This document shows, in pieces, positions 9,390-64,000 of a stretch of DNA of 64,000 nucleotides; the first letter of the stretch is position 1; the number at the start of each line of letters is the position of its first letter. The notes below the pieces were generated by a model. That model worked only from the letters and a program-made list of their open reading frames with translations, was not told the DNA's origin and did not search any database. The DNA lies in assembly GCA_938005315.1 (NCBI GenBank), contig CALLOB010000014.1:3705-67704 (forward strand), written 5' to 3'. Both the position numbers and the translations under genes were made by a program. This stretch comes from an uncultured Phycisphaerae bacterium. GTDB lineage: Bacteria; Planctomycetota; Phycisphaerae; UBA1845; PWPN01.

Positions 9390-11168
9390 CTACTCGCCGC
9401 GGATGACCCGCAGCACCTCATTCATGCTCGTGACGCCTTCGATCACCCGCTGAACGCCGATCTCCTGCATGTACAGCATGCCGGCCTTGCGGGCGGCGGC
9501 GCGGATCGCCTCCACGGGCTGCCCGTTGCGGATCTGCTCGCGCACGCCGGCGTCGGTGATCATCACCTCGAACAGGCCGGTCCGTCCGAAGTAGCCGCTG
9601 CCCTGGCAGTTCGGGCAGACCTTCGGGCGACCCTTCTCGTCGACCTGTTCCTCGGGGCGGGGCGGTCGGTAGAACACGTCGATCTTCTCGGCCGGCAGGT
9701 TGACCTTCTTCAGCAGCTCGGCATCCGGCTTGTAGGCCACGCGGCAGGCGATGCACAGCTTGCGGATCAGCCGCTGGCAGGTCACCGCCAGGATGGTGTC
9801 GGCGACGCCGTCGGTGTCGCCGGCGAGGCTGACCAGCCGCTTGAGGGCATCCAGGCTGTCCTTGGCCACGCAGCCCATGTAGATCTTCTTGGACCGGGCG
9901 GCCGAGACGGCCAGGTGGGCGGTCTCGCGGTCTAGGCAGTCGCTGACCATGACCACATCCGGCTCGCGGCGCAGCACGGTCTGCAGCTGGCGGGCATAGC
10001 TGCCCTCATGTTTGGTGGAGTCGTACGTGTACTGAGTGATGTTCTCGAGGTCCATCAGCGGCGACTGCTCGATGGTCAGCAGGTTCTGCATGAAGGCGTC
10101 GTGCGAGCGGAGGGCGGCATACAGCGTGGTGGTCACGCCGGAGGCCCGCGGCCCGGCGACGAGAATCAGCCCGGTGGGCTCCTTGAGCACCGGCTCCAGC
10201 CGCTCGAGCTGCCGGGCGTGCAGGCCCAGATCGGCGATCCGGAGGCGGTTCTGGGCGCCCACGATCCGCAGGGCGAGCTTTTCGTGCTGGGTGGTGCCGC
10301 TGGTCCGCACCTCGATCTCGGTGGTGCCGCCCGATCCGCCGGTGATGGCCGCACCGATGTTGGCCTGCTGGGGTTTGCGGCGTTCCTGGACGTCCAGTCC
10401 GGCGACGGTCTTGATGAAATCGATGGCCGCCCGGGCGGCCTCGGGGGTCAGCAGGTCATTGCGGGCCTGGACCAGTCCGTCGATGCTGTAGGCCAGGCGG
10501 GCGGCGGTGGCGCTGCAGATGAGCTCCACGTCCGTGGCCCGCCGCCACAGGGCGTCGAACAGCAGCACCTGGGCGGCCTCGAAAGCGTCGGTCTGGGTCG
10601 GGTCGGTCGGCGGAGGAACGCGCTTGCCGCGGTGGTCGTTCACCCGGACGCGTTCGACCGCGTCCATCTTCTGTTCCTTCTTCCTGGTCAGGCTCCCCAG
10701 CCAGGCCTTGATGTGCCGCGGGGTGAAGACCCGGCTGGAGGAATCGACCATGCCGTTGCGGACCGCGACGTAGGCCCCGCAGCTTCCGGCGGTGACCAGG
10801 AACCACAACCCGAAACCCGCCCAGAAGAGCCACGGCCCCTGCCAGGGCATCAGGATCCACAGGGCCAGCCCGACGACTCCGCCGCCCAGGACCACGCCGT
10901 TCCACAGCTCGCGCTTCACACGGCGAAGAAAAAGCGCGTCCTTGTCCACCCACTGGCAGAACAGCAGCCAGGGCACGATGGCCACCAGCACGCCGAGGAC
11001 CCGCCAGTAGCTGATGTATCCGCCGAAGGTCGGGCTTCCGGCCTGGGCGGTCGCGGCCGGGACGGCCCCGACGGCTGCGGGAACCAGCCACAGGCCCACC
11101 GCCGCGGCCGTGAGGGCCGACCGGTTCCAGGAGACTTCAGGATCGAAGTTGCGGTGCATGGGATACAC
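9390..11168 (-). CDS. Membrane-anchored GspE/PilB-like protein with degenerate NTPase motifs (predicted pseudo-ATPase)
   Basis: About four N-terminal TM helices, then the GspE-type N2/CTD fold. The Walker A position reads GPRASGVTTTLY (GTG Val codon at 10134..10136 where Lys is expected). The Asp box is IEQSPLM, Walker B is EPDVVMVSDCLD and the His box is KKIYMGCVAKD. The tetracysteine CIAC...CPNC and GRTGLFEV are retained. Start is GTG 11168 or ATG 11159. Confidence 0.7.
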   Translation of the reverse strand: MYPMHRNFDPEVSWNRSALTAAAVGLWLVPAAVGAVPAATAQAGSPTFGGYISYWRVLGVLVAIVPWLLFCQWVDKDALFLRRVKRELWNGVVLGGGVVGLALWILMPWQGPWLFWAGFGLWFLVTAGSCGAYVAVRNGMVDSSSRVFTPRHIKAWLGSLTRKKEQKMDAVERVRVNDHRGKRVPPPTDPTQTDAFEAAQVLLFDALWRRATDVELICSATAARLAYSIDGLVQARNDLLTPEAARAAIDFIKTVAGLDVQERRKPQQANIGAAITGGSGGTTEIEVRTSGTTQHEKLALRIVGAQNRLRIADLGLHARQLERLEPVLKEPTGLILVAGPRASGVTTTLYAALRSHDAFMQNLLTIEQSPLMDLENITQYTYDSTKHEGSYARQLQTVLRREPDVVMVSDCLDRETAHLAVSAARSKKIYMGCVAKDSLDALKRLVSLAGDTDGVADTILAVTCQRLIRKLCIACRVAYKPDAELLKKVNLPAEKIDVFYRPPRPEEQVDEKGRPKVCPNCQGSGYFGRTGLFEVMITDAGVREQIRNGQPVEAIRAAARKAGMLYMQEIGVQRVIEGVTSMNEVLRVIRGE

Positions 11169-11615: not shown

Positions 11616-13010
11616 TCAGCCGGTCGAGGCCGCGGCGAAGACGGTCTTGTTCCGGCCGGCCTGCTTGGCTGCGTACAGGGCCACGTCGGCCTCGTGGATC
11701 AGGGCCTCGGCGGTGGCCGCGTGGGTGGTGCGAAGGCTGGCGATGCCGATGCTCAGCGTGGCCGGAAGCTCCGGTCCCAGCCGGGCGAGTTCCTCGGTGA
11801 AACGGGCGGTGATCCGGCGGGCTAGGGCGGCTGCGGCGGGGGCGGAGGTCTGCGGCAGCAGGACCACGAACTCGTCCCCGCCGAACCGCGCGGCCACGTC
11901 GGCGTCGCGCAGTTCGCCGGCGATCACGTTCGCGGCGGTCAGGAGGACCTCGTCGCCCTTGCGGTGACCGAACCGGTCGTTGATCTCCTTGAAGCGGTCC
12001 AGGTCGAACATCATGCAGGTCAGGTCCGAGTCGTAGCGTTCCGCGGCCGCGAACTCCCGGGCGATGACCTCGGTGAAGTAGCGGCGGTTATAGACGCAGG
12101 TCAGCGGATCCCGGGCCGCGAGCTGCTCGAGATCCCGGGTGCGCTCCTGGACGCGGCGCTCCAGCTCGGCGTTGAGCTTCAGCAGCTCGTACCGCGACTG
12201 CGAGAGCCGGTCGGCCATGTCGTTGAAGGCCCGGGCCAGATCGCCGATCTCGTCGCGCGAGACCACCTTCGCGCGGGCCTCCATGCTGCCCTCGGCCAGG
12301 GCCCGGGCGGTGCGGGCCAGTTCGTTGAGCGGCGCGACCACCCGGCGGACGACCAGCAGGCTCAGGGGCACGACCAGCAGCAGCAGCAGGATGATCGCCC
12401 GGGTGAGGTAGTCGGCCACCTGATCGAGATTGGCTCGGATGTCGGACACGTCGGTGGCCAGTCGCAGGTAGCCGCGGATGCTGGCCCGGGCCGGGTCGCG
12501 TCCGGCGGACTGGGGGCTGAAGACCGGCACGGTGACGTCGATGCATACCGGTCCGCGGCCGCCGGCGAGGGTCCGCAGGGCCGGACGACCGGGGTTTTCG
12601 ATCGCCATTTTCGAGCGGCCTTCGGCTAGCACCTCGTCCAGCAGTCCGGCCGAGGCTTCGCCGGCCGCCAGGACGTGCCCGGTGGGGTCGGTGAACACCG
12701 CGTACGCCACACGCTGGGAGCGGATCAGATCGTTGACATGCCCCACCAGGCCGGAGAGGTCCGGCTCGGCCACGGCGGCGGCCGCGGCGGTCGCCTGAGA
12801 AACCGCCCAGTCCCGTGCCCAGCGTAATTCGTTGCCGTATAGCCGCAGGGCGGTGGTTCGCAGCGTGACCGCCACGCCGGCGCCGGTGATGACCAGCGTC
12901 GAGACCGTAAACAGCAGCGAGGCCTTGAACTGCAGCGAGCCGAAGACGTCTCGCCAGCCTCCCCGCCGGACGGGATTCTCCGGCTCAGTCATCATCCCTG
13001 ACGATTCCAT
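11616..13010 (-). CDS. Diguanylate cyclase (membrane sensor-HAMP-GGDEF)
   Basis: C-terminal DPLTCVYNRRYF...FDLDRFKEINDRFGHRKGDEVL...RDADVAARFGGDEFVVLLP has an intact GGDEF and an RxxD I-site. TM plus HAMP-like region (VVRRVVAPLNELARTARALAEG). Start is uncertain: ATG 13010, ATG 12995/12992 or TTG 13079. Confidence 0.8.
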   Translation of the reverse strand: MESSGMMTEPENPVRRGGWRDVFGSLQFKASLLFTVSTLVITGAGVAVTLRTTALRLYGNELRWARDWAVSQATAAAAAVAEPDLSGLVGHVNDLIRSQRVAYAVFTDPTGHVLAAGEASAGLLDEVLAEGRSKMAIENPGRPALRTLAGGRGPVCIDVTVPVFSPQSAGRDPARASIRGYLRLATDVSDIRANLDQVADYLTRAIILLLLLVVPLSLLVVRRVVAPLNELARTARALAEGSMEARAKVVSRDEIGDLARAFNDMADRLSQSRYELLKLNAELERRVQERTRDLEQLAARDPLTCVYNRRYFTEVIAREFAAAERYDSDLTCMMFDLDRFKEINDRFGHRKGDEVLLTAANVIAGELRDADVAARFGGDEFVVLLPQTSAPAAAALARRITARFTEELARLGPELPATLSIGIASLRTTHAATAEALIHEADVALYAAKQAGRNKTVFAAASTG

Positions 13011-13385
13011 TGTTGACGCCGCAACTCCCGCTCTTGTTCGACCGCAAGGACCATACGATTCATTTCCGGCCTCGGGCAAACACCCCCAACGGGTTTTCCT
13101 GCCCTGCGGATCGTTTCTGCCGGCGTCGAAGACTCCCGGCGCCCCTGGGACCGTCCTCCGCGGGCCGGGCGTCGAGGCCGGGCGGGGAAGATCGGGCGGC
13201 TCGGAACACGCGGCGGCGCGCGGTGAGTCCCCCCGGAGAATCGACCGGAAAACAGCGGGACTTGATCCGGGAAGGTCCGAAAAAACGGGTTCAACCGCTT
13301 CTCCCCGGCTTCGACGGCGGGTCCGGGCCGGTTCGGCGGGTGGGGCAGGAGGTTCCCGGAGCCTCTGGAGAAGCCCCCGAGCGGC

Positions 13386-53253: not shown

Positions 53254-56200
53254 CTATGGCGCCGGGTTGTTGGCGGGCTCCGGCGGTCCGATCGCGACGG
53301 TCTCCGCGCGGGCACGTTGATGCCTCAGCAGCGTCTCACGCAGCGCGGCCAGGGCCTCGACGGAGCGGGTGGCCTTTCCGGTCAGCCGTCCCGACAGAGG
53401 CCTGTCCGGCGATGCGGACGGGGGAAGGACGACCCCGGCCGTCGCCGCCTGGCTCAGCAGCTCCTCCAGCCGCCGGCAGGCCGACTCGGCCAGGGCCCGC
53501 TGCTGGGCGAGCTCCGCGGCCTGGGCGCGCGTGACCTCCCGGGCGGAGTCGATCTGGCGGGTGCGGGCCTCCAGCTCGGCGCACAGCCGGGATGCCCGCT
53601 CCAGCATCGCGGCGGTGTCGCCGGCCTGGACCTTGCTCTCAGATACCCGGGCCGCGAGCTCCGCGGCCCGTGCCGCGGTCTCGGATTCGGCCAGTTGTGC
53701 GGAGCGGACGGTCTGCTGCAGCCGCAGGACCAGTTCCCGGGCCTGGCCGAAGCCTGCGTCCATGCGGTCCACCACGGCGGCCGCGCGGGCCACGGCATCC
53801 AGAATGCTTTTCTGGCCGCTCCGGGCGTCGGCCTGGGCAGCGGACAGGATCTCGCGGATACCATTTGACTCGGCCGCCGCAGCAGTGATCTCCTTCCGGA
53901 CGGCGGCGGCTTCGTCCAGCGTGCGGGCCAGAGCCTGATGCTGTTGGGAGGTGCGCTCGAACAGGTCGGCCATTCGTTCCTGCCGCTGTTTGAGAGCGTC
54001 CAGCGCTTCGGACGCCAGCATGCCACTGATGTGCCGGTCGAGAGTCTGCAGCTGCGCGATCCGGTCTTCGGCGCCCGACAATTGCGTGCTCAAGGCCGCC
54101 GCATCGGCCTTTGCCTGCTCCAGAAGCGTCGCGAGTTGCGTCGCACGGTCGGCCATGGCCCGGTGGGCGGCGGAGACCTGGGCGGCGATTCGGCCGCCGG
54201 CGGCGTTGACGGCCTTGAGCAGTTCGTCGATGCGCGTCCGGGACTCGGCGACCTGCCGCTCAACGCGACCGGCGGCATCTTCAGCGGTCCGTTCGACCCG
54301 GTCGGCGATGGAATCCAGCCTCGCGGCTTCCTCGACGGCCGCCCGCTGAGCGGCCAGGAGGTCGGCAGCGGCGGCCCCGAGGTTGCCTTCGAGCCCGGCC
54401 AGCTGGTCCGCGAGACGGCGTCCCTCGGCCACCTGGGCGGTCAGTGTTTCCAGCAGCTCGCCGGCCTGGGAAGCGGCGGATTGTCCCGCGGCCGTGGCGG
54501 CCCGGGCCTGGTCGATCAGCCCGGCGACCTGTTGCTGCGCCTGGGAAAGGCGGTTTCCAAGATCGTCGTGGGTCTGGAGCAGCCTTTGCTCGAGTTCACT
54601 GACGCTTTCGGCGCCTGTCCGCGCGGCCTCGGCGGCCTTCTCGGCGCGGAGGGCCTGGGCCAGGGCGGCCGCGGCGCGGGTTTGCAGGGTATCGAGGGTC
54701 TGTGCAGCCTGCCCGATCCCGGCCTCCAGGCGTGCGGCGCGTTCATCGGCCTGTCGGGTGAGGTCGTCGCAACGGCCGGCGGCGGTTTCGAGCCGGGCGG
54801 CCAGTTGTGCGGAGGACTGTCCCGCGGCTTCCGCGCGGCCGATCCACTCGGCCAGCTCTGCCTTCAGTGTCTCGGCGCGGCTGACGCCGGTATCCAGATC
54901 CTTTTCACGGACCTCGGCCCGGTTGATGAGCTCTTGCAGGCCCGCCTGGCGGCATTCCGAGAGGTGTATCCCGCTGAGCAGCCGGTCCACTGCTTCCCTG
55001 GCATCGCCGGTGGCCTGCCGAACCTGCTGGGCGACCTGCCGACCTGAAGCCGAGGCCTCGCCGAGCGCATCAACAGCCTTGGAGGCCTCGGCCAGCACCG
55101 TGTTGGCGTGCGCCAGTCGTCCGAGGGATTCCTCGGAGGCGGCCAGCAGCTTTTCAAGAGCCTCCTGCCGGGAGGCACATCGTTCGTTCAGGGCCGACAG
55201 GTTCTCGACCTGTCGGTCGGCGCGGATCGAAGCGTCTTCCACTCCCGCCCGCAGTTCCTGGACGGTCCGGCTCGCCTCCAGAAGGCTTGCGCGGGCGCTC
55301 AGGGCCTCCTCGGCCGCGGCACGAGCGGCCGTGCAGGCGGCGTGCGTTTCGTTGAGAAGGGCCTCGAGGGAGGCGGCCTGCTCCTGGATGTCCCTGAATC
55401 GGGCCGGATCCAGCAGTGCCTCCAGCTTTCCGCTGCCGGCCGCAAGGCGGACCAGCAGGTCCTGCGCGGTTCGACATCCCCGGTTGAGATCCTCGAGCTG
55501 TCCGGCGACCTGGGCCGTCAGTCCGGCCAGAGCGCCCCCGCGCTGTTCGAGGGAGGCGGTTTCCTCGCCCAGCCTGGTTCGCGCGAGCTCGGATGCAAGC
55601 GTGGCCTGCTGCAGTGCCTGTTCCTGTTCGGCCGCCTCGGCGAGTCGGCGTGCCAGACGCCCGATGTCCTCGGCACATTGTGCCGCGATCAGTCGCGCAC
55701 GGCGGCGGAGCCGGGCATAGCGTTCCCCGGCGGCGGCCGAACCGACTGCGGCCTCCTGGAGCGTTGCCTTCTGCCGGTCCGCCTGGCGAATCAGCTCCCG
55801 GAGTTCCTCGATGCGATCGGCCAGAGCCTGGGCGGCCGGTCGGCTCTCGCGGCACTCGTCCCGGAGGTTGCGAAGCGTGCCCTGCAGATCGGCCTGCAAT
55901 GTCGTTCCCTGCCGGACGACGTTTTCGAGATCCCGGCACTGCGCGGCGGCGCGTTCGATGACCCGCTCGGCCATCTGGGCCTGTCCCTGGAGATGCTGGG
56001 TGGCCCACAAGGCATGGGCGTCCACGGGATGGCTCGGTGCGCCGGCGATCAGGCGGGGATCGACCGATGGGGCGGACTGTCCGATGAGCAGCGGAGCGGC
56101 GGGGTGACCGGCAGGACCCGTGTCGGCGGCAGGCCCCGGCGCGGCGGTTTCGGGGCCCTCGAGCAGGTCCTGGAGCGCCGAGACCACGCAGTCCCGATCG

Positions 56201-56961
56201 ACTTCCGCCAGGCCCCGGCCGTAGGCCGCCAGCAGGGCGCCGTCGGCGATCTGGTTGATCAGCCGCGGGATGCCCCCGGAGCGGTCGTGAATCAGATCGA
56301 CGGCTTCGTCGTTGATGATGGACGCATCCTTCGCCCCGGCGACGGTCAGGCGATGGCGGATGTAGTTGCGCGTCTGGTCGTGTTCCATCGGTGTCAGCCG
56401 ACAGAAATCCGCGATCCGCTGCCGAAGCGGGGTCATCTCCGGCCGCTGCAGTGTCTGCAGGAGCCCGGGTCGGCCGAGAAGCACGACCTGGACCAGCTTG
56501 GACGCCTCCTGTTCCAGGTCCCCGAGCATCCGCACGTATTCCAGCATCGCGGGGCTCATGTCCTGGGCGTCGTCCAGCAGCACGACCACGAAGCGGTCCA
56601 GCAGCAGCTGGGCCCGCAGGTGAGCCTTGAGCCGCTCCAGCAGTTCGCCGTCGCTCTGTGCGGGCCGGTGGCGGATCTCCAGGGCCCGCAGGACGGCGCA
56701 CAGCAGCTCGTGCCCGTCGGCCGGAATGTGGTCCACCGCGGCGACGTCCGCGCGCCCGGCGAGGCTGGCGACCAGCATGCGGGCCAGCAGCGTCTTGCCC
56801 ATGCCGGCCTCGCCGGTCACCACGGTGATGCCGCGGCGCTGGGTCACGCCGTAGAGCAATGCCGCCAGCGTTTCCTCGTGCCCGGCGGTGCGAAAGTAGA
56901 AGGCCGGGTCCGCCGTGTTCGCGAACGGCACGCGCTCGAGCTGGAAGTGTTCAGCGTACAT
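53254..56961 (-). CDS. ExeA/GspA-like AAA+ ATPase fused to a ~900-aa coiled-coil region (1235 aa)
   Basis: ATG 56961. MYAEHFQLERVPFANTADPAFYFRTAGHEETLAALLYGVTQRRGITVVTGEAGMGKTLLAR (ExeA N-terminal signature, Walker A), VVVLLDDAQ (Walker B). From about aa 330 on, uninterrupted A/E/L/Q/R-rich heptad-like sequence. Confidence 0.75.
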   Translation of the reverse strand: MYAEHFQLERVPFANTADPAFYFRTAGHEETLAALLYGVTQRRGITVVTGEAGMGKTLLARMLVASLAGRADVAAVDHIPADGHELLCAVLRALEIRHRPAQSDGELLERLKAHLRAQLLLDRFVVVLLDDAQDMSPAMLEYVRMLGDLEQEASKLVQVVLLGRPGLLQTLQRPEMTPLRQRIADFCRLTPMEHDQTRNYIRHRLTVAGAKDASIINDEAVDLIHDRSGGIPRLINQIADGALLAAYGRGLAEVDRDCVVSALQDLLEGPETAAPGPAADTGPAGHPAAPLLIGQSAPSVDPRLIAGAPSHPVDAHALWATQHLQGQAQMAERVIERAAAQCRDLENVVRQGTTLQADLQGTLRNLRDECRESRPAAQALADRIEELRELIRQADRQKATLQEAAVGSAAAGERYARLRRRARLIAAQCAEDIGRLARRLAEAAEQEQALQQATLASELARTRLGEETASLEQRGGALAGLTAQVAGQLEDLNRGCRTAQDLLVRLAAGSGKLEALLDPARFRDIQEQAASLEALLNETHAACTAARAAAEEALSARASLLEASRTVQELRAGVEDASIRADRQVENLSALNERCASRQEALEKLLAASEESLGRLAHANTVLAEASKAVDALGEASASGRQVAQQVRQATGDAREAVDRLLSGIHLSECRQAGLQELINRAEVREKDLDTGVSRAETLKAELAEWIGRAEAAGQSSAQLAARLETAAGRCDDLTRQADERAARLEAGIGQAAQTLDTLQTRAAAALAQALRAEKAAEAARTGAESVSELEQRLLQTHDDLGNRLSQAQQQVAGLIDQARAATAAGQSAASQAGELLETLTAQVAEGRRLADQLAGLEGNLGAAAADLLAAQRAAVEEAARLDSIADRVERTAEDAAGRVERQVAESRTRIDELLKAVNAAGGRIAAQVSAAHRAMADRATQLATLLEQAKADAAALSTQLSGAEDRIAQLQTLDRHISGMLASEALDALKQRQERMADLFERTSQQHQALARTLDEAAAVRKEITAAAAESNGIREILSAAQADARSGQKSILDAVARAAAVVDRMDAGFGQARELVLRLQQTVRSAQLAESETAARAAELAARVSESKVQAGDTAAMLERASRLCAELEARTRQIDSAREVTRAQAAELAQQRALAESACRRLEELLSQAATAGVVLPPSASPDRPLSGRLTGKATRSVEALAALRETLLRHQRARAETVAIGPPEPANNPAP

Positions 56962-57498
56962 CCTGATCGCGCCTCTGGTCCCGCCGTCAGGCACGCGTGG
57001 TCGGGAAGCCCCGCGTTGGCGGGCGTCCCGCCGGCGAGGCGGTGCCTGGGCAGACGGACTCCTCCCCAGCGGGATATCGGACAGGCGCCCGGCGGACCGG
57101 AGTTATTGGGCGGAGGATCGATGGGCCGCTCGCGCGCAAGCATGTCCGGACGCGCGGCGGCAGGATACTATCGGACCTTGATGGACGCCCGTTCCGGGCT
57201 TCAGCGGGGCCGGGCACGCCGGCGGATTGTTCCGCGAAAACCCCTGTGACGTCCTTCTGTCCGGCAAGCCGCGAAGACCGGCGCATGCGATCGCGGCGCG
57301 GGTCTTTATCGGTCGGGCGGATCCGGGTCTGCTCCGTCGGTCCGGGAGGTCCGGCAAATACGTCAATTGCGCGCCGCATCGCTTCGATATTACCGGGGAC
57401 GAATCGTGCACCGAGGGGGCGGCGCTTCCAGCGCGCCGGCCCCGGCAGGGCAGATCCGCCGGGGAGCGTGCGTCCCGGGCGGGAACCCAGGCGGCCGG

Positions 57499-58848
57499 AT
57501 GCGGGCCGGGAGGTCCTTGATCGTGAGCGGTTGGATGCCCATATGGCTGGCGGCCGTCGGGTTGCTGTCGGTGGTCGGGTGGCTGTGCTGGCGGCGGTGC
57601 GGGCGGCGGAGCCCGGCAGGGTCGATCGACCTGATCGGCCGCAACCTGTCGCGGGTGCCCGCGGAGATCGCCGGGGACCTGCGCCGGCTGCAGCTGGACG
57701 ATTCGGCCGACGAGCTGGCCCGCGGGTGGAACATGCTTCTGCAGGCGGTGACGGCCGCCCGGAAGGAGCTCGAGGAACTGCGGCTGAGCCGGCACGCCCG
57801 CGAGACCCTCGAACGCTACCAGGCCCGCTGGATGACCGGCTTGGTGGCCCGGATGCCCTGCGGCCTGATCACCGTGTCGGACGACTGGACGATCACGTAC
57901 GCCAACGCGGCGGCCGAGCGCATGCTGCATGCCGGCAACGGGGGCCTGAAAGACCGGTCGCTGCGCGATTTCATCCGTAACGACCTGAGCCCCTTCCATC
58001 CCGGGCGGGGCATCGCCCTGGACCGCACCTTCGAGCTCAAGACGGCCGACGCGGCGGTCCGGCTGACCTCGCTGGCGAACGACGACGCCGAGTGCGGCGA
58101 GGCGGTGTTCTTCCTGCACGACGTCAGCCAGCAGAAGGCCGTCGAGCGGGAACGCAGCCAGTTTCTCTATCATGTGACCCACGAGCTGCGGACGCCGCTG
58201 ACCAACATCCGGGCGTACGCCGAGACGCTCTCCGAGGGCGTGCTCAAGGACGAGGCGATGCTCCGGGAGTGCTACAACGTCATCGTCGGCGAGACCCAGC
58301 GGCTTTCGCGGCTGGTGGAGGACATCCTCAGCCTCTCCCAGCTGGAGGCCGGGGCGGCGCGGCTGACGATGGACGATGTCAACACCGCCCGGCTGGTGCG
58401 GCAGGTCGTCGAGGACATGCAGGCTCAGGCGGACGACAAGGGTGTCGAGCTGATCCTCTCGCTTCCGGCCAAGATGCCCACCATCCGCGGCGACAAGGAC
58501 CGCCTGGCGGTGGTGCTGACCAACCTCATCGGCAACGCCGTCAAGTACACCCCTTCGCGCGGCCGTGTTGAGGTTCGTTGCGAGGATGACGGGCAGCGCT
58601 TCCGGGTCGAGGTGCGCGACACCGGCATCGGCATCGCGCCCGAGGACCAGCCCCGGGTGTTCGAGAAGTTCTACCGTTCGGCGGACGAGCGCGTGGCCCA
58701 GCAGCCGGGAACCGGGCTGGGCCTGGCCCTGGCCATGGAGATCGTCCGGGCTCACGGGGGAACGATCGAGCTGCGCAGTACGCCGGGCGAGGGCTCGGTT
58801 TTCACCGCGATTCTGCCGGTGGGCCGGCTGGCGGCCGTGCGGACGTGA
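57499..58848 (+). CDS. Membrane sensor histidine kinase (PAS-HisKA-HATPase_c)
   Basis: FLYHVTHELRTPLTNIRAYAETL (H-box), LIGNAVKYT (N-box), DTGIGI, GTGLGLA. Start may instead be GTG 57523 (GGGAGG 9 nt upstream) or ATG 57535. Confidence 0.85.
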   Translation: MRAGRSLIVSGWMPIWLAAVGLLSVVGWLCWRRCGRRSPAGSIDLIGRNLSRVPAEIAGDLRRLQLDDSADELARGWNMLLQAVTAARKELEELRLSRHARETLERYQARWMTGLVARMPCGLITVSDDWTITYANAAAERMLHAGNGGLKDRSLRDFIRNDLSPFHPGRGIALDRTFELKTADAAVRLTSLANDDAECGEAVFFLHDVSQQKAVERERSQFLYHVTHELRTPLTNIRAYAETLSEGVLKDEAMLRECYNVIVGETQRLSRLVEDILSLSQLEAGAARLTMDDVNTARLVRQVVEDMQAQADDKGVELILSLPAKMPTIRGDKDRLAVVLTNLIGNAVKYTPSRGRVEVRCEDDGQRFRVEVRDTGIGIAPEDQPRVFEKFYRSADERVAQQPGTGLGLALAMEIVRAHGGTIELRSTPGEGSVFTAILPVGRLAAVRT

Positions 58849-58956: not shown

Positions 58957-59337
58957 ATGGCGACGATCGTGGTGGCCGAGGACGACGCCCACATCAGCCG
59001 GGTGGTCTGCATGTGGCTGGCCCAGAAGGGGCACCGGGTGCTGGAGGCCCACAACGGAGCCCGGGCGCTGGAGATCCTCCGCGGCCAGGCGATCGACATC
59101 CTGATCAGCGACGTGAACATGCCGGTGATGAACGGCATCGATCTGGTTATCACCGCGTGCCGCGAGCGGCTGGTGGGAACCGGTGTGATCCTGCTGTCCA
59201 GCCGCGCGGACCAGGCGGGAATCCGGCAGGCGCTGGCCGGTCAGAAGGTGACGCTCAGACCCAAGCCGTTCAGCCCTTCGGGGCTGGCCAGGGACGTCGA
59301 GCGGATGCTGGTGGAAGACAGCATGGCGGCCGGGTGA
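58957..59337 (+). CDS. Single-domain response regulator (REC only)
   Basis: GGAAGGAGG upstream. MATIVVAEDDAHI...ILISDVNMPVMNG...RPKPF. Confidence 0.85.
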   Translation: MATIVVAEDDAHISRVVCMWLAQKGHRVLEAHNGARALEILRGQAIDILISDVNMPVMNGIDLVITACRERLVGTGVILLSSRADQAGIRQALAGQKVTLRPKPFSPSGLARDVERMLVEDSMAAG

Positions 59338-62675: not shown

Positions 62676-64000
62676 ATGGAAACGACCATCAAGACGCAGG
62701 AACGCCTGGGAACCCTCCTGCTCCGCTCCGGGGCGATCACGGAGGAGGATCTCAAGGCGGCGCTGAAGCTCCAGCGTCAGGACCGCGGCCGGCTGGGCGA
62801 GACCCTGATCGAGATGGGCGTGCTCTCGCCGCAGACGCTGCTGGACATCCTGGCCAGGCGTCTGGGGGTCAAGGGCTGTCTGTTGCGGCACGGGCTGGTG
62901 GACCCCGCGCTGCGCGACCTGATCGACCGCGACGAGGCCCGGCGGTTGAAGGTGCTGCCGCTGTTCAAGGTTCACAACCGGCTCACCGTCGCGATGGTCG
63001 AGCCGCAGCGTCTGCCGGTGATCGACCGCCTGGCGGCCCTGACCGGCTGTGAGATCAACCCGGTGCTGGTGCTGGAGCGCAACTACGCGGAGTTCGCCGA
63101 TCGCTACCTCTCGGAGGAAGTGTCGGTGGACTCGTTCCTGCTCAGCCTGAAGGAACAGAACGTCGAGTTCGTCAACAAGGAGACGGTGGACGACGACGTG
63201 CTGACCGACCTGTCGCGCACCGACAGCAGCCCGGTGGTGAACCTGGTCAACCTCTCGCTGCTGACGGCGATCCGCGACCGGGCCAGCGACGTGCACATCG
63301 AGCCGGACCGCAAGCATATGCGCGTCCGCTACCGTATCGACGGCGTGCTTCGCGAGCTGCTGACCGCCCCGCTGGCCATGCACGCGGGCGTGACCTCGCG
63401 CATCAAGGTCCTGGCCAAGATGGACATCGCCGAGAAGCGGTTGCCGCAGGAGGGACGCGTGCGGATCATCGCCGAGGGGCGCGACGTCGATCTCCGCGTC
63501 TCGACGATGCCGACGCTGCTGGGCGAGAAGGTGGTCGTGCGGCTCCTGGACCGCCAGAACCTCAATCTGGACATGGCCGGGCTGGGACTGCGCGACGCGG
63601 CGCTGGAGAAGTTCCGCCGGATGCTGCTGCGTCCCCACGGCCTGGTGCTGGTCACCGGACCGACCGGCAGCGGCAAGACCACCACGCTGTACTCCGCGCT
63701 GGATCTGCTGCGTTCCATGACGATCAACATCGTGACCGTCGAGGATCCCGTCGAGTACCAGCTGGACATGATCAACCAGATCAACGTCCAGGAGCACATC
63801 GGCCTGACCTTCAGCCGGGCGCTGCGTTCGATCCTGCGGCAGGACCCCGACGTGATCATGGTCGGCGAGATCCGCGACACCGACACCGCCCGCGTGGCCG
63901 TCCAAGCGGCGCTCACTGGCCATCTGGTGCTCAGCACGCTGCACACCAAGGACTGCGTGGGCGCCCTGGCCCGGCTGACGGACATGGGCACAGAGCCTTA
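62676..64000 (+). CDS. GspE/PilB/MshE-family secretion ATPase with tandem MshEN-type motifs; 3' end outside the window
   Basis: Not in the ORF track because no stop lies in the window; I translated it by hand from ATG 62676. METTIKTQERLGTLLLRSGAITEEDLKAALKLQRQDRGRLGETLIEMGVLSPQTLLDILARR...ASDVHIEP...LPQEGR...LVTGPTGSGKTTTLYS...VEDPVEY...QDPDVIMVGEIRD...TGHLVLSTLHT. Confidence 0.9.
   Translation, partial: METTIKTQERLGTLLLRSGAITEEDLKAALKLQRQDRGRLGETLIEMGVLSPQTLLDILARRLGVKGCLLRHGLVDPALRDLIDRDEARRLKVLPLFKVHNRLTVAMVEPQRLPVIDRLAALTGCEINPVLVLERNYAEFADRYLSEEVSVDSFLLSLKEQNVEFVNKETVDDDVLTDLSRTDSSPVVNLVNLSLLTAIRDRASDVHIEPDRKHMRVRYRIDGVLRELLTAPLAMHAGVTSRIKVLAKMDIAEKRLPQEGRVRIIAEGRDVDLRVSTMPTLLGEKVVVRLLDRQNLNLDMAGLGLRDAALEKFRRMLLRPHGLVLVTGPTGSGKTTTLYSALDLLRSMTINIVTVEDPVEYQLDMINQINVQEHIGLTFSRALRSILRQDPDVIMVGEIRDTDTARVAVQAALTGHLVLSTLHTKDCVGALARLTDMGTEP

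Follow-up and report, generated by a model that had tools for sequence, protein, structure and literature searches.

The MshEN module was defined in 2016 and has been reported in more than 10,000 proteins, mostly ATPases of the PilB, GspE and MshE types, with Planctomycetes already listed among them (Rhodopirellula RB12774, Isosphaera); it has since been dissected in the pilus ATPase PilF (PMC11731258, PMC12002112). In MshE of Vibrio cholerae each motif of 24 residues consists of two helices that bind one half of an extended molecule of cyclic di-GMP (c-di-GMP). The first Arg and a triangle of three Leu sandwich the guanine, whose O6 and N7 are recognised by backbone NH groups of the motif Gly and of the residue that follows, and the last Gln forms hydrogen bonds with ribose and phosphate (PMC5013675, PMC11731258). 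The DNA analysed here is a stretch of 64,000 nucleotides from an uncultured Phycisphaerae bacterium (contig CALLOB010000014.1, positions 3,705 to 67,704), referred to below as the window. Near the end of the window lies the 5' part of the gene for a PilB-like type IV pilus assembly ATPase, whose N-terminal MshEN domain is followed by an MshEN_C α/β subdomain and then by the hexameric ATPase core. Sensing of c-di-GMP by this ATPase is the best-supported reading of the locus, and we give it a probability of about 0.75.

The open reading frame of the ATPase starts with the ATG at 62676, and the deduced N-terminus is METTIKTQE-RLGTLLLRSGAITEEDLKAALKLQ-RQDRG-RLGETLIEMGVLSPQTLLDILARR-LGV... A preliminary description of this DNA had placed two tandem MshEN motifs at residues 10-33 and 39-62, separated by the five-residue spacer RQDRG, within positions 62703-62861. 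Scoring against the pattern RLGxx[LVI][LVI]xxG[LVI][LVI]xxxxLxxxLxxQ, which has 24 residues and 11 fixed positions, returned exactly these coordinates. Each motif matched 10 of the 11 fixed positions, that is 20 of 22 for the pair by the strict rule and 21 of 22 by the relaxed rules of the authors of the domain, and the exact register of 29 residues between the motifs gave the complete tandem module of 53 residues. The two mismatches were the ones already named in the preliminary description, Ala20 at position 11 of motif I and Arg62 at the last position of motif II, where the pattern has Gln. Both are allowed by the relaxed pattern of Wang et al. (2016), in which the hydrophobic class includes Ala and the last position is [QNKRYWST]; position 11 is part of the hydrophobic core and makes no contact with the ligand (PMC5013675).

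Inspection of the key ligand-contact residues (R, L, G, L17, L21 and Q24 in motif numbering) showed six of six in motif I and five of six in motif II, where R62 stands for Gln. Hence 11 of the 12 are identical to those of MshE (RLG-L-L-Q and RLG-L-L-R), both Gly3 being kept. Analysis of all six frames of the whole window revealed matches with at least 10 of the 11 fixed positions at the sites of motif I and motif II only, and matches to the relaxed pattern were found at the same two sites only. No match at 10/11 or better was obtained in 100 codon-block shuffles, in which relaxed matches averaged 0.07. The motif pair is confirmed as real and exactly located, and it is not a product of chance.

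Comparison with sequences of the PDB using phmmer gave a gap-free alignment of residues 6-65 of the ATPase with MshE of V. cholerae (PDB 5HTL, residues 5-64), with an E-value of 8e-9 when the first 73 residues were used alone. In this alignment R10, Q33, R39 and R62 fall on MshE R9, Q32, R38 and Q61, respectively. NCBIfam NF053729, a curated c-di-GMP motif model of 53 positions with a cutoff of 38 bits, aligned residues 10-61 to profile positions 1-52 at 63.4-67.9 bits. The two alignments agree in register, and the motifs do not lie outside the ligand-contact positions.

The AlphaFold2 (AF2) model of residues 1-150, built from 69 sequences, had a mean predicted local distance difference test score (pLDDT) of 89 and showed helices at 11-17, 23-36, 40-46 and 52-63, which form a four-helix bundle followed by the α/β subdomain. 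Helix α1 begins at residue 11 and therefore has no N-terminal extension. The best match of the model in the PDB according to Foldseek was again 5HTL, the structure of MshE with c-di-GMP (E 2.5e-12, 33% identity), followed by c-di-GMP-bound structures of PilF GSPII-B; the complexes of the Xanthomonas citri PilB N-domain with PilZ (7LKM and 7LKO) were also among the structural matches. The arrangement known from the MshE receptor domain, as proposed in the preliminary description, was thus recovered by the gap-free alignment to 5HTL, by the profile, by the predicted helix bundle and by the closest fold.

Alignment to the Pfam MshEN/T2SSE_N profile, which had also been suggested, was run and proved uninformative. 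PF05157 ("MshEN") matches residues 70-149 only and leaves the binding helices outside, and according to the authors of the domain neither the first three MshEN helices nor the binding site lie within the Pfam model (Wang 2016 supplement). Since the binding helices are not covered, this profile neither supports nor refutes the claim; it was dropped as a test, and NF053729 and the alignments to PDB sequences were used instead.

Conservation of the motifs was counted in 77 species representatives of Phycisphaerae. All 77 have Gly3 in both motifs, and all but one (76/77) have Gln24 in motif I. NF053729 matched every one of the 69 aligned relatives. This conservation supports a site that is maintained under purifying selection. 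Among the relatives, position 11 varies (L 41, A 28, V 17) and the first position of both motifs drifts to M, L, K or Q. The last residue of motif II is variable whereas the Gln of motif I is kept, which suggests an asymmetric binding site in the Phycisphaerae lineage.

By homology to MshE and to PilF GSPII-B/C, one extended c-di-GMP molecule would lie across the N-terminal bundle of the ATPase. Each guanine would be held between the first Arg of a motif (R10 or R39) and a Leu triangle, composed of L11, L55 and L59 in one case and of L40, L26 and L30 in the other, and would be read by the backbone NH of G12-T13 and of G41-E42. Phosphate and ribose would be contacted by Q33 in one half-site and, in the second, by R62 in place of Gln. 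Occupancy of the site may alter the docking of the N-domain on the motor or the platform and in this way tune pilus extension. The co-transcribed HD-GYP protein, probably governed by the histidine kinase and the response regulator of the same operon, would set the local c-di-GMP pool and thereby control pilus assembly. The fold, the register and the residues are those described above; binding, its affinity and the sign of its effect are what we infer from them.

The ATPase belongs to the GspE/PilB/PilT superfamily, given its T2SSE domain and the presence of all four canonical motifs, namely Walker A, Asp box, Walker B and His box (Table 1). Among full-length relatives the closest is P0001, with 98% identity and a length of 590 residues, and the homologues at 60-83% identity are all proteins of Phycisphaerae/Planctomycetota of about 585 residues, labelled PilB or GspE. 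P0001 scored 578.4 bits against the PilB equivalog TIGR02538 (cutoff 675.65), residues 11-567 covering positions 2-563 of 564 and hence the full length of the model. Against the GspE equivalog TIGR02533 it scored 575.7 bits (cutoff 630.25), the match beginning at residue 88. Since P0001 falls below both curated cutoffs, equivalog status as PilB or as GspE was rejected and the ATPase is called PilB-like, which it is in architecture and neighbourhood.

Six genes of the forward strand follow each other head to tail in the order histidine kinase, response regulator (REC), HD-GYP, degenerate GGDEF, STAS and ATPase, with stops and starts that overlap or nearly abut. The HD and HHExxDGxGYP metal-binding and catalytic motifs of the HD-GYP protein are intact (LLHDVGK and YHHEVPDGTGYP), and it is a putative phosphodiesterase. 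The GGDEF protein, on the contrary, differs from the active cyclase 3IGN in having SDAQF for GGEEF and SIE for DID, so that it does not qualify as an active cyclase. It keeps the RxxD I-site (RKDD), and four orthologues all share R378, D380 and D381. The presence of an HD-GYP and a degenerate GGDEF protein upstream in the operon of the ATPase, as given in the preliminary description, was borne out by these motifs and by the common strand and the tight junctions of the genes.

The GGDEF protein combines a membrane N-terminus with a degenerate active site (A-site) and an invariant I-site, as is typical of pseudo-cyclases serving as c-di-GMP receptors. In the STAS protein the FIDSAG motif retains its Ser, the residue that is phosphorylated in STAS proteins of the SpoIIAA type.

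Table 1. Positions of the genes, domains and motifs of the ATPase operon in the window.
Feature	Positions	Strand	Evidence and remarks
PAS-HisKA-HATPase_c sensor histidine kinase	57367..58848	+	Pfam; first gene of the cluster
Single-domain response regulator (REC)	58957..59337	+	Pfam Response_reg, E 3.7e-16
HD-GYP phosphodiesterase (putative), 510 aa	59367..60899	+	Pfam HD_5, E 3e-40; intact LLHDVGK and HHEVPDGTGYP; no domain assigned to the first ~300 aa
Membrane-GAF-GGDEF protein, 481 aa	60896..62341	+	Pfam GGDEF, E 1.2e-11; weak GAF; ATGA overlap with the HD-GYP stop
STAS-domain protein, 111 aa	62338..62673	+	Pfam STAS, E 1.7e-11; GTG start; GTGA overlap with the stop of the GGDEF gene
PilB/GspE-superfamily pilus-assembly ATPase, 5' part	62676..64000	+	Translation; 441 of about 590 codons, window ends inside the gene
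MshEN motif I, aa 10-33, RLGTLLLRSGAITEEDLKAALKLQ	62703..62774	+	10/11 fixed positions; predicted helices α1-α2; predicted half-site for one GMP moiety
Spacer RQDRG, aa 34-38	62775..62789	+	5 residues, same length as the MshE spacer (PMC5013675)
MshEN motif II, aa 39-62, RLGETLIEMGVLSPQTLLDILARR	62790..62861	+	10/11 fixed positions; predicted helices α3-α4; predicted second half-site
MshEN_C / T2SSE_N1 α/β subdomain, aa 70-149	62883..63122	+	Pfam PF05157, E 1.2e-12; AF2 strands 93-99, 102-107 and 126-131 with flanking helices
ATPase core, aa 182-440	63219..63995	+	Pfam T2SSE (PF00437), E 3e-107
Walker A, GPTGSGKT	63657-63680	+	Within the ATPase core
Asp box, VEDPVE	63738-63755	+	Within the ATPase core
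Walker B, DPDVIMVGEIRD	63843-63878	+	Within the ATPase core
His box, TGHLVLSTLHT	63915-63947	+	Within the ATPase core

The window ends inside the ATPase gene, and the genes that lie beyond it were followed in relatives. Those at 82%, 68% and 65% identity share the six genes and continue with machinery of the pilus or type II secretion system (T2SS) kind: a T2SSF platform protein (PilC), PilM (PilM_2), PilN, two small unassigned genes, N_methyl prepilin-type proteins, a GspH-like protein and a Secretin. It is through these relatives that the locus is assigned to a type IV pilus/T2SS-like machine. No pilT adjoins the ATPase gene in the relatives.

Gene order was surveyed in 80 GTDB species representatives, and the position of the STAS gene was scored in the 76 loci with enough sequence. 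In 73 of these 76 related Phycisphaerae loci the ATPase gene is immediately preceded by the STAS gene; the junction is a gap of two nucleotides after the TGA stop of the STAS gene in the window, and an ATGA overlap in one related locus (L051). The near-universal pairing of STAS and ATPase genes in Phycisphaerae is the most notable side result of the analysis. A search of the literature for a link between STAS proteins and PilB, or a pilus ATPase, in Planctomycetes returned nothing relevant.

The block made of REC, HD-GYP and degenerate GGDEF genes is found between the histidine kinase and STAS genes in 7/73 GTDB loci only, which are those of the closest relatives, while the remaining loci show the order histidine kinase, STAS, ATPase, which is that of most Phycisphaerales. 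Since the block is confined to the closest relatives, the c-di-GMP enzymes were apparently inserted, in this clade only, into an older unit of histidine kinase, STAS and PilB-like ATPase. Preservation of the motifs did not differ between relatives with and without the HD-GYP and degenerate GGDEF insertion, the mean being 17.86 of 22 fixed positions in both groups.

That the ATPase itself senses c-di-GMP was the prediction of the preliminary description, and the alignments, NF053729, the AF2 and Foldseek results and the operon context support it as a prediction; judged by its residues and its modelled fold, the MshEN domain is predicted to be competent for c-di-GMP binding, at the probability given above. 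Several observations weigh against it. The terminal Gln of motif II, which makes two hydrogen bonds in MshE, is Arg62 here. The same position is the least conserved key site among the relatives (C 25, Q 15, S 11, T 8 and R 7 of 77), so the second half-site may be weaker than in MshE. The top PDB sequence match overall to the N-domain is PilF GSPII-A, a non-binder that also carries R62 and nevertheless scores 55.4 bits on NF053729, over the cutoff. The intact GSPII-A domain with the full consensus restored, at all six deviant residues, still does not bind c-di-GMP because an Ncap-extended helix α1 and tight packing between the subdomains block the site (PMC12002112). Conservation of the motif is therefore necessary, not sufficient. 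The control scores on NF053729 were 85.2 bits for MshE, 63.7 for PilF GSPII-B and 62.5 for PilF GSPII-C, all three binders, with the ATPase at 67.9. Since the proven non-binder passes as well, the profile indicates membership of the domain family, not binding; it was rejected as a predictor of binding and kept as evidence of membership. Neither PF05157 nor NF053729 is usable alone to call c-di-GMP binding.

These observations bear on an alternative in which the MshEN fold is kept while the site binds weakly or not at all and the domain serves as a protein-docking module, with the PilC/PilM platform proteins, the STAS protein or the degenerate GGDEF protein as candidate partners. The real c-di-GMP input would then be the RxxD I-site of the degenerate GGDEF protein (or the STAS protein), similar to Xanthomonas PilB, which senses c-di-GMP indirectly via PilZ-FimX. 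The drift at the first position of both motifs, the invariant RxxD, the STAS gene so regularly placed directly upstream and the similarity to 7LKM and 7LKO agree with such a role. We nevertheless regard it as unlikely, in view of the 11 canonical key residues out of 12, which include both Gly3 and all four Leu of the two triangles. From the six deviations of GSPII-A the ATPase has R62 alone and keeps Q33, R39, G41, L55 and L59. No L-T-I-G-D-K Ncap box stands ahead of its helix α1, the start of this helix at residue 11 in the AF2 model pointing in the same direction, and G11V, R38G, G40L, L54H and L58C, which are among the many substitutions of the non-binder XpsE, are all absent. Drift at the first position is also tolerated in the tightest known binder, PilF GSPII-B (6 nM), which has K and L there. 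A single change at the last position lowers affinity while binding persists: Q218E, at the equivalent position of GSPII-B motif II, reduced affinity 77-fold and left a dissociation constant (KD) of 460 nM (PMC11731258). Arg62 could probably still donate hydrogen bonds to the phosphate.

A different ligand for the same site is conceivable as well, given that MshEN_N binds 3'3'-cGAMP detectably (KD 3.3e-4 M; PMC5013675). With a KD as high as 0.33 mM, about 600-fold weaker than for c-di-GMP, we hold it very improbable that this or another cyclic dinucleotide is the physiological ligand. The operon, moreover, encodes the c-di-GMP-specific families HD-GYP and GGDEF, and the guanine-reading backbone positions are kept in both half-sites. 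As for a chance resemblance in the Leu-rich helical N-terminus of a protein from a high-GC genome, the GC content of the window is 70%, which enriches codons for Arg, Leu, Gly and Ala. The codon shuffles and the six-frame search, the exact 29-residue register, the significant homology to solved MshEN domains by alignment to MshE, by NF053729 and by Foldseek, and the retention of the motifs in every relative refute this explanation and reduce its probability to next to nothing.

Since the domain, its motif, its distribution and its role have been known since 2016, and a curated NCBI model recognises the sequence, the identification of the MshEN domain is a correct annotation, not a discovery. 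What is particular to this locus is the context, in which a predicted receptor ATPase appears to be co-transcribed with an HD-GYP protein, an I-site pseudo-cyclase and a STAS protein, gene order being the evidence for it, together with the STAS-ATPase pairing in nearly all Phycisphaerae and the restriction of the c-di-GMP enzymes to one subclade; the literature search brought up no description of such an arrangement. The operon offers a compact and testable case of local c-di-GMP signalling, with a putative phosphodiesterase, a pseudo-cyclase with an I-site and a predicted receptor ATPase on one transcript. Phycisphaerae are a class of Planctomycetota whose members are mostly uncultured and have been met chiefly in metagenome bins; attachment to surfaces is of ecological importance in the class. 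If binding were confirmed, experimentally supported control of pilus assembly by c-di-GMP through MshEN-type domains would be extended to it.

A wider interpretation, which we consider doubtful, is that the locus forms a self-contained local signalling module wired to the type IV pilus motor. The histidine kinase and response regulator would control the HD-GYP phosphodiesterase, the non-catalytic GAF-GGDEF protein with its RxxD would be a second c-di-GMP receptor or a scaffold, and the STAS protein would be a regulator of the partner-switch type that contacts the MshEN-bearing ATPase. If true, regulation of a pilus ATPase by a STAS protein would represent a layer of control that has not been described before and is ancestral in Phycisphaerae, the c-di-GMP enzymes having been inserted later in one subclade.

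Analysis of the rest of the window revealed a second T2SSE-family protein of 592 residues (9390-11168, reverse strand; Pfam E 6.5e-58) whose N-terminal region is hydrophobic. It is without the MshEN motif, and both of its Walker motifs deviate: Walker A is degenerate, with Val for Lys in GPRASGVT, and Walker B has SDCLD instead of GEIRD. An intact HAMP-GGDEF cyclase gene (11616-13079, reverse strand), with RFGGDEF and a RDAD I-site, lies 447 nucleotides upstream of it, and the two may represent a pseudo-ATPase paired with a cyclase. Divergent from the histidine kinase operon, positions 53254-56994 of the reverse strand encode a protein of 1246 residues with an N-terminal AAA_22 domain (ExeA/MshM-like) followed by about 950 residues rich in Ala, Glu, Gln and Arg, which are coiled-coil-like. 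A tblastn search found no homologue of this gene within 10 kb of the ATPase gene in the 80 related loci, and it was therefore rejected as a part of the pilus ATPase system.

Among the known systems, V. cholerae MshE (5HTL; Wang et al. 2016, PMC5013675) has the same two motifs of 24 residues with a spacer of five residues, starting at residue 9 compared with residue 10 in the ATPase described here. The binding modules share 24/53 identical residues and the same predicted fold, and in both proteins MshEN_C and the ATPase core follow. The ATPase differs in having Arg62 for Gln61 and Ala20 for Ile19, and its gene belongs, in a Planctomycetota bacterium, to a pilus cluster of the PilM/N type instead of an msh operon. 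It is co-transcribed with HD-GYP, degenerate GGDEF and STAS genes that the msh operon does not contain, and its binding of c-di-GMP is a prediction.

PilF of Thermus thermophilus is similar in that its GSPII-B and GSPII-C are MshEN-type domains of a type IV pilus assembly ATPase, each of which binds one c-di-GMP, with NF053729 scores comparable to that of our ATPase and structural matches at E 1e-9. PilF has three such domains in tandem and the ATPase has one; in GSPII-B position 1 is K and L and motif II is one residue short, while the ATPase has Arg at both positions and motifs of full length. GSPII-A (9G1W; PMC12002112) shares the residue numbering, Arg62 and a score over the NF053729 cutoff, and is distinguished by H33, S39, A41, I55, I59 and an extra, Ncap-stabilised turn of helix α1.

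PilB proteins of the type IVa pili of Myxococcus xanthus and Geobacter (3JC8, 5TSG) show the same succession of MshEN, N2 and ATPase, with coverage of TIGR02538 over its full length and similar NF053729 scores (62.5 and 68.5 bits). They are set apart from the ATPase by the score of its full-length relative, which at 578 bits is below 675.65, by the lack of an adjoining pilT in the relatives and by different upstream signalling genes. Finally, the N-domains of Xanthomonas XpsE (GspE) and of X. citri PilB (2D27, 7LKM) display an MshEN-type N-terminal fold on a secretion or pilus ATPase, while their motif has been lost (in XpsE by G11V, R38G, G40L, L54H, L58C and Q61V) and they do not bind c-di-GMP directly; the Phycisphaerae ATPase, on the contrary, keeps the residues lost in XpsE.

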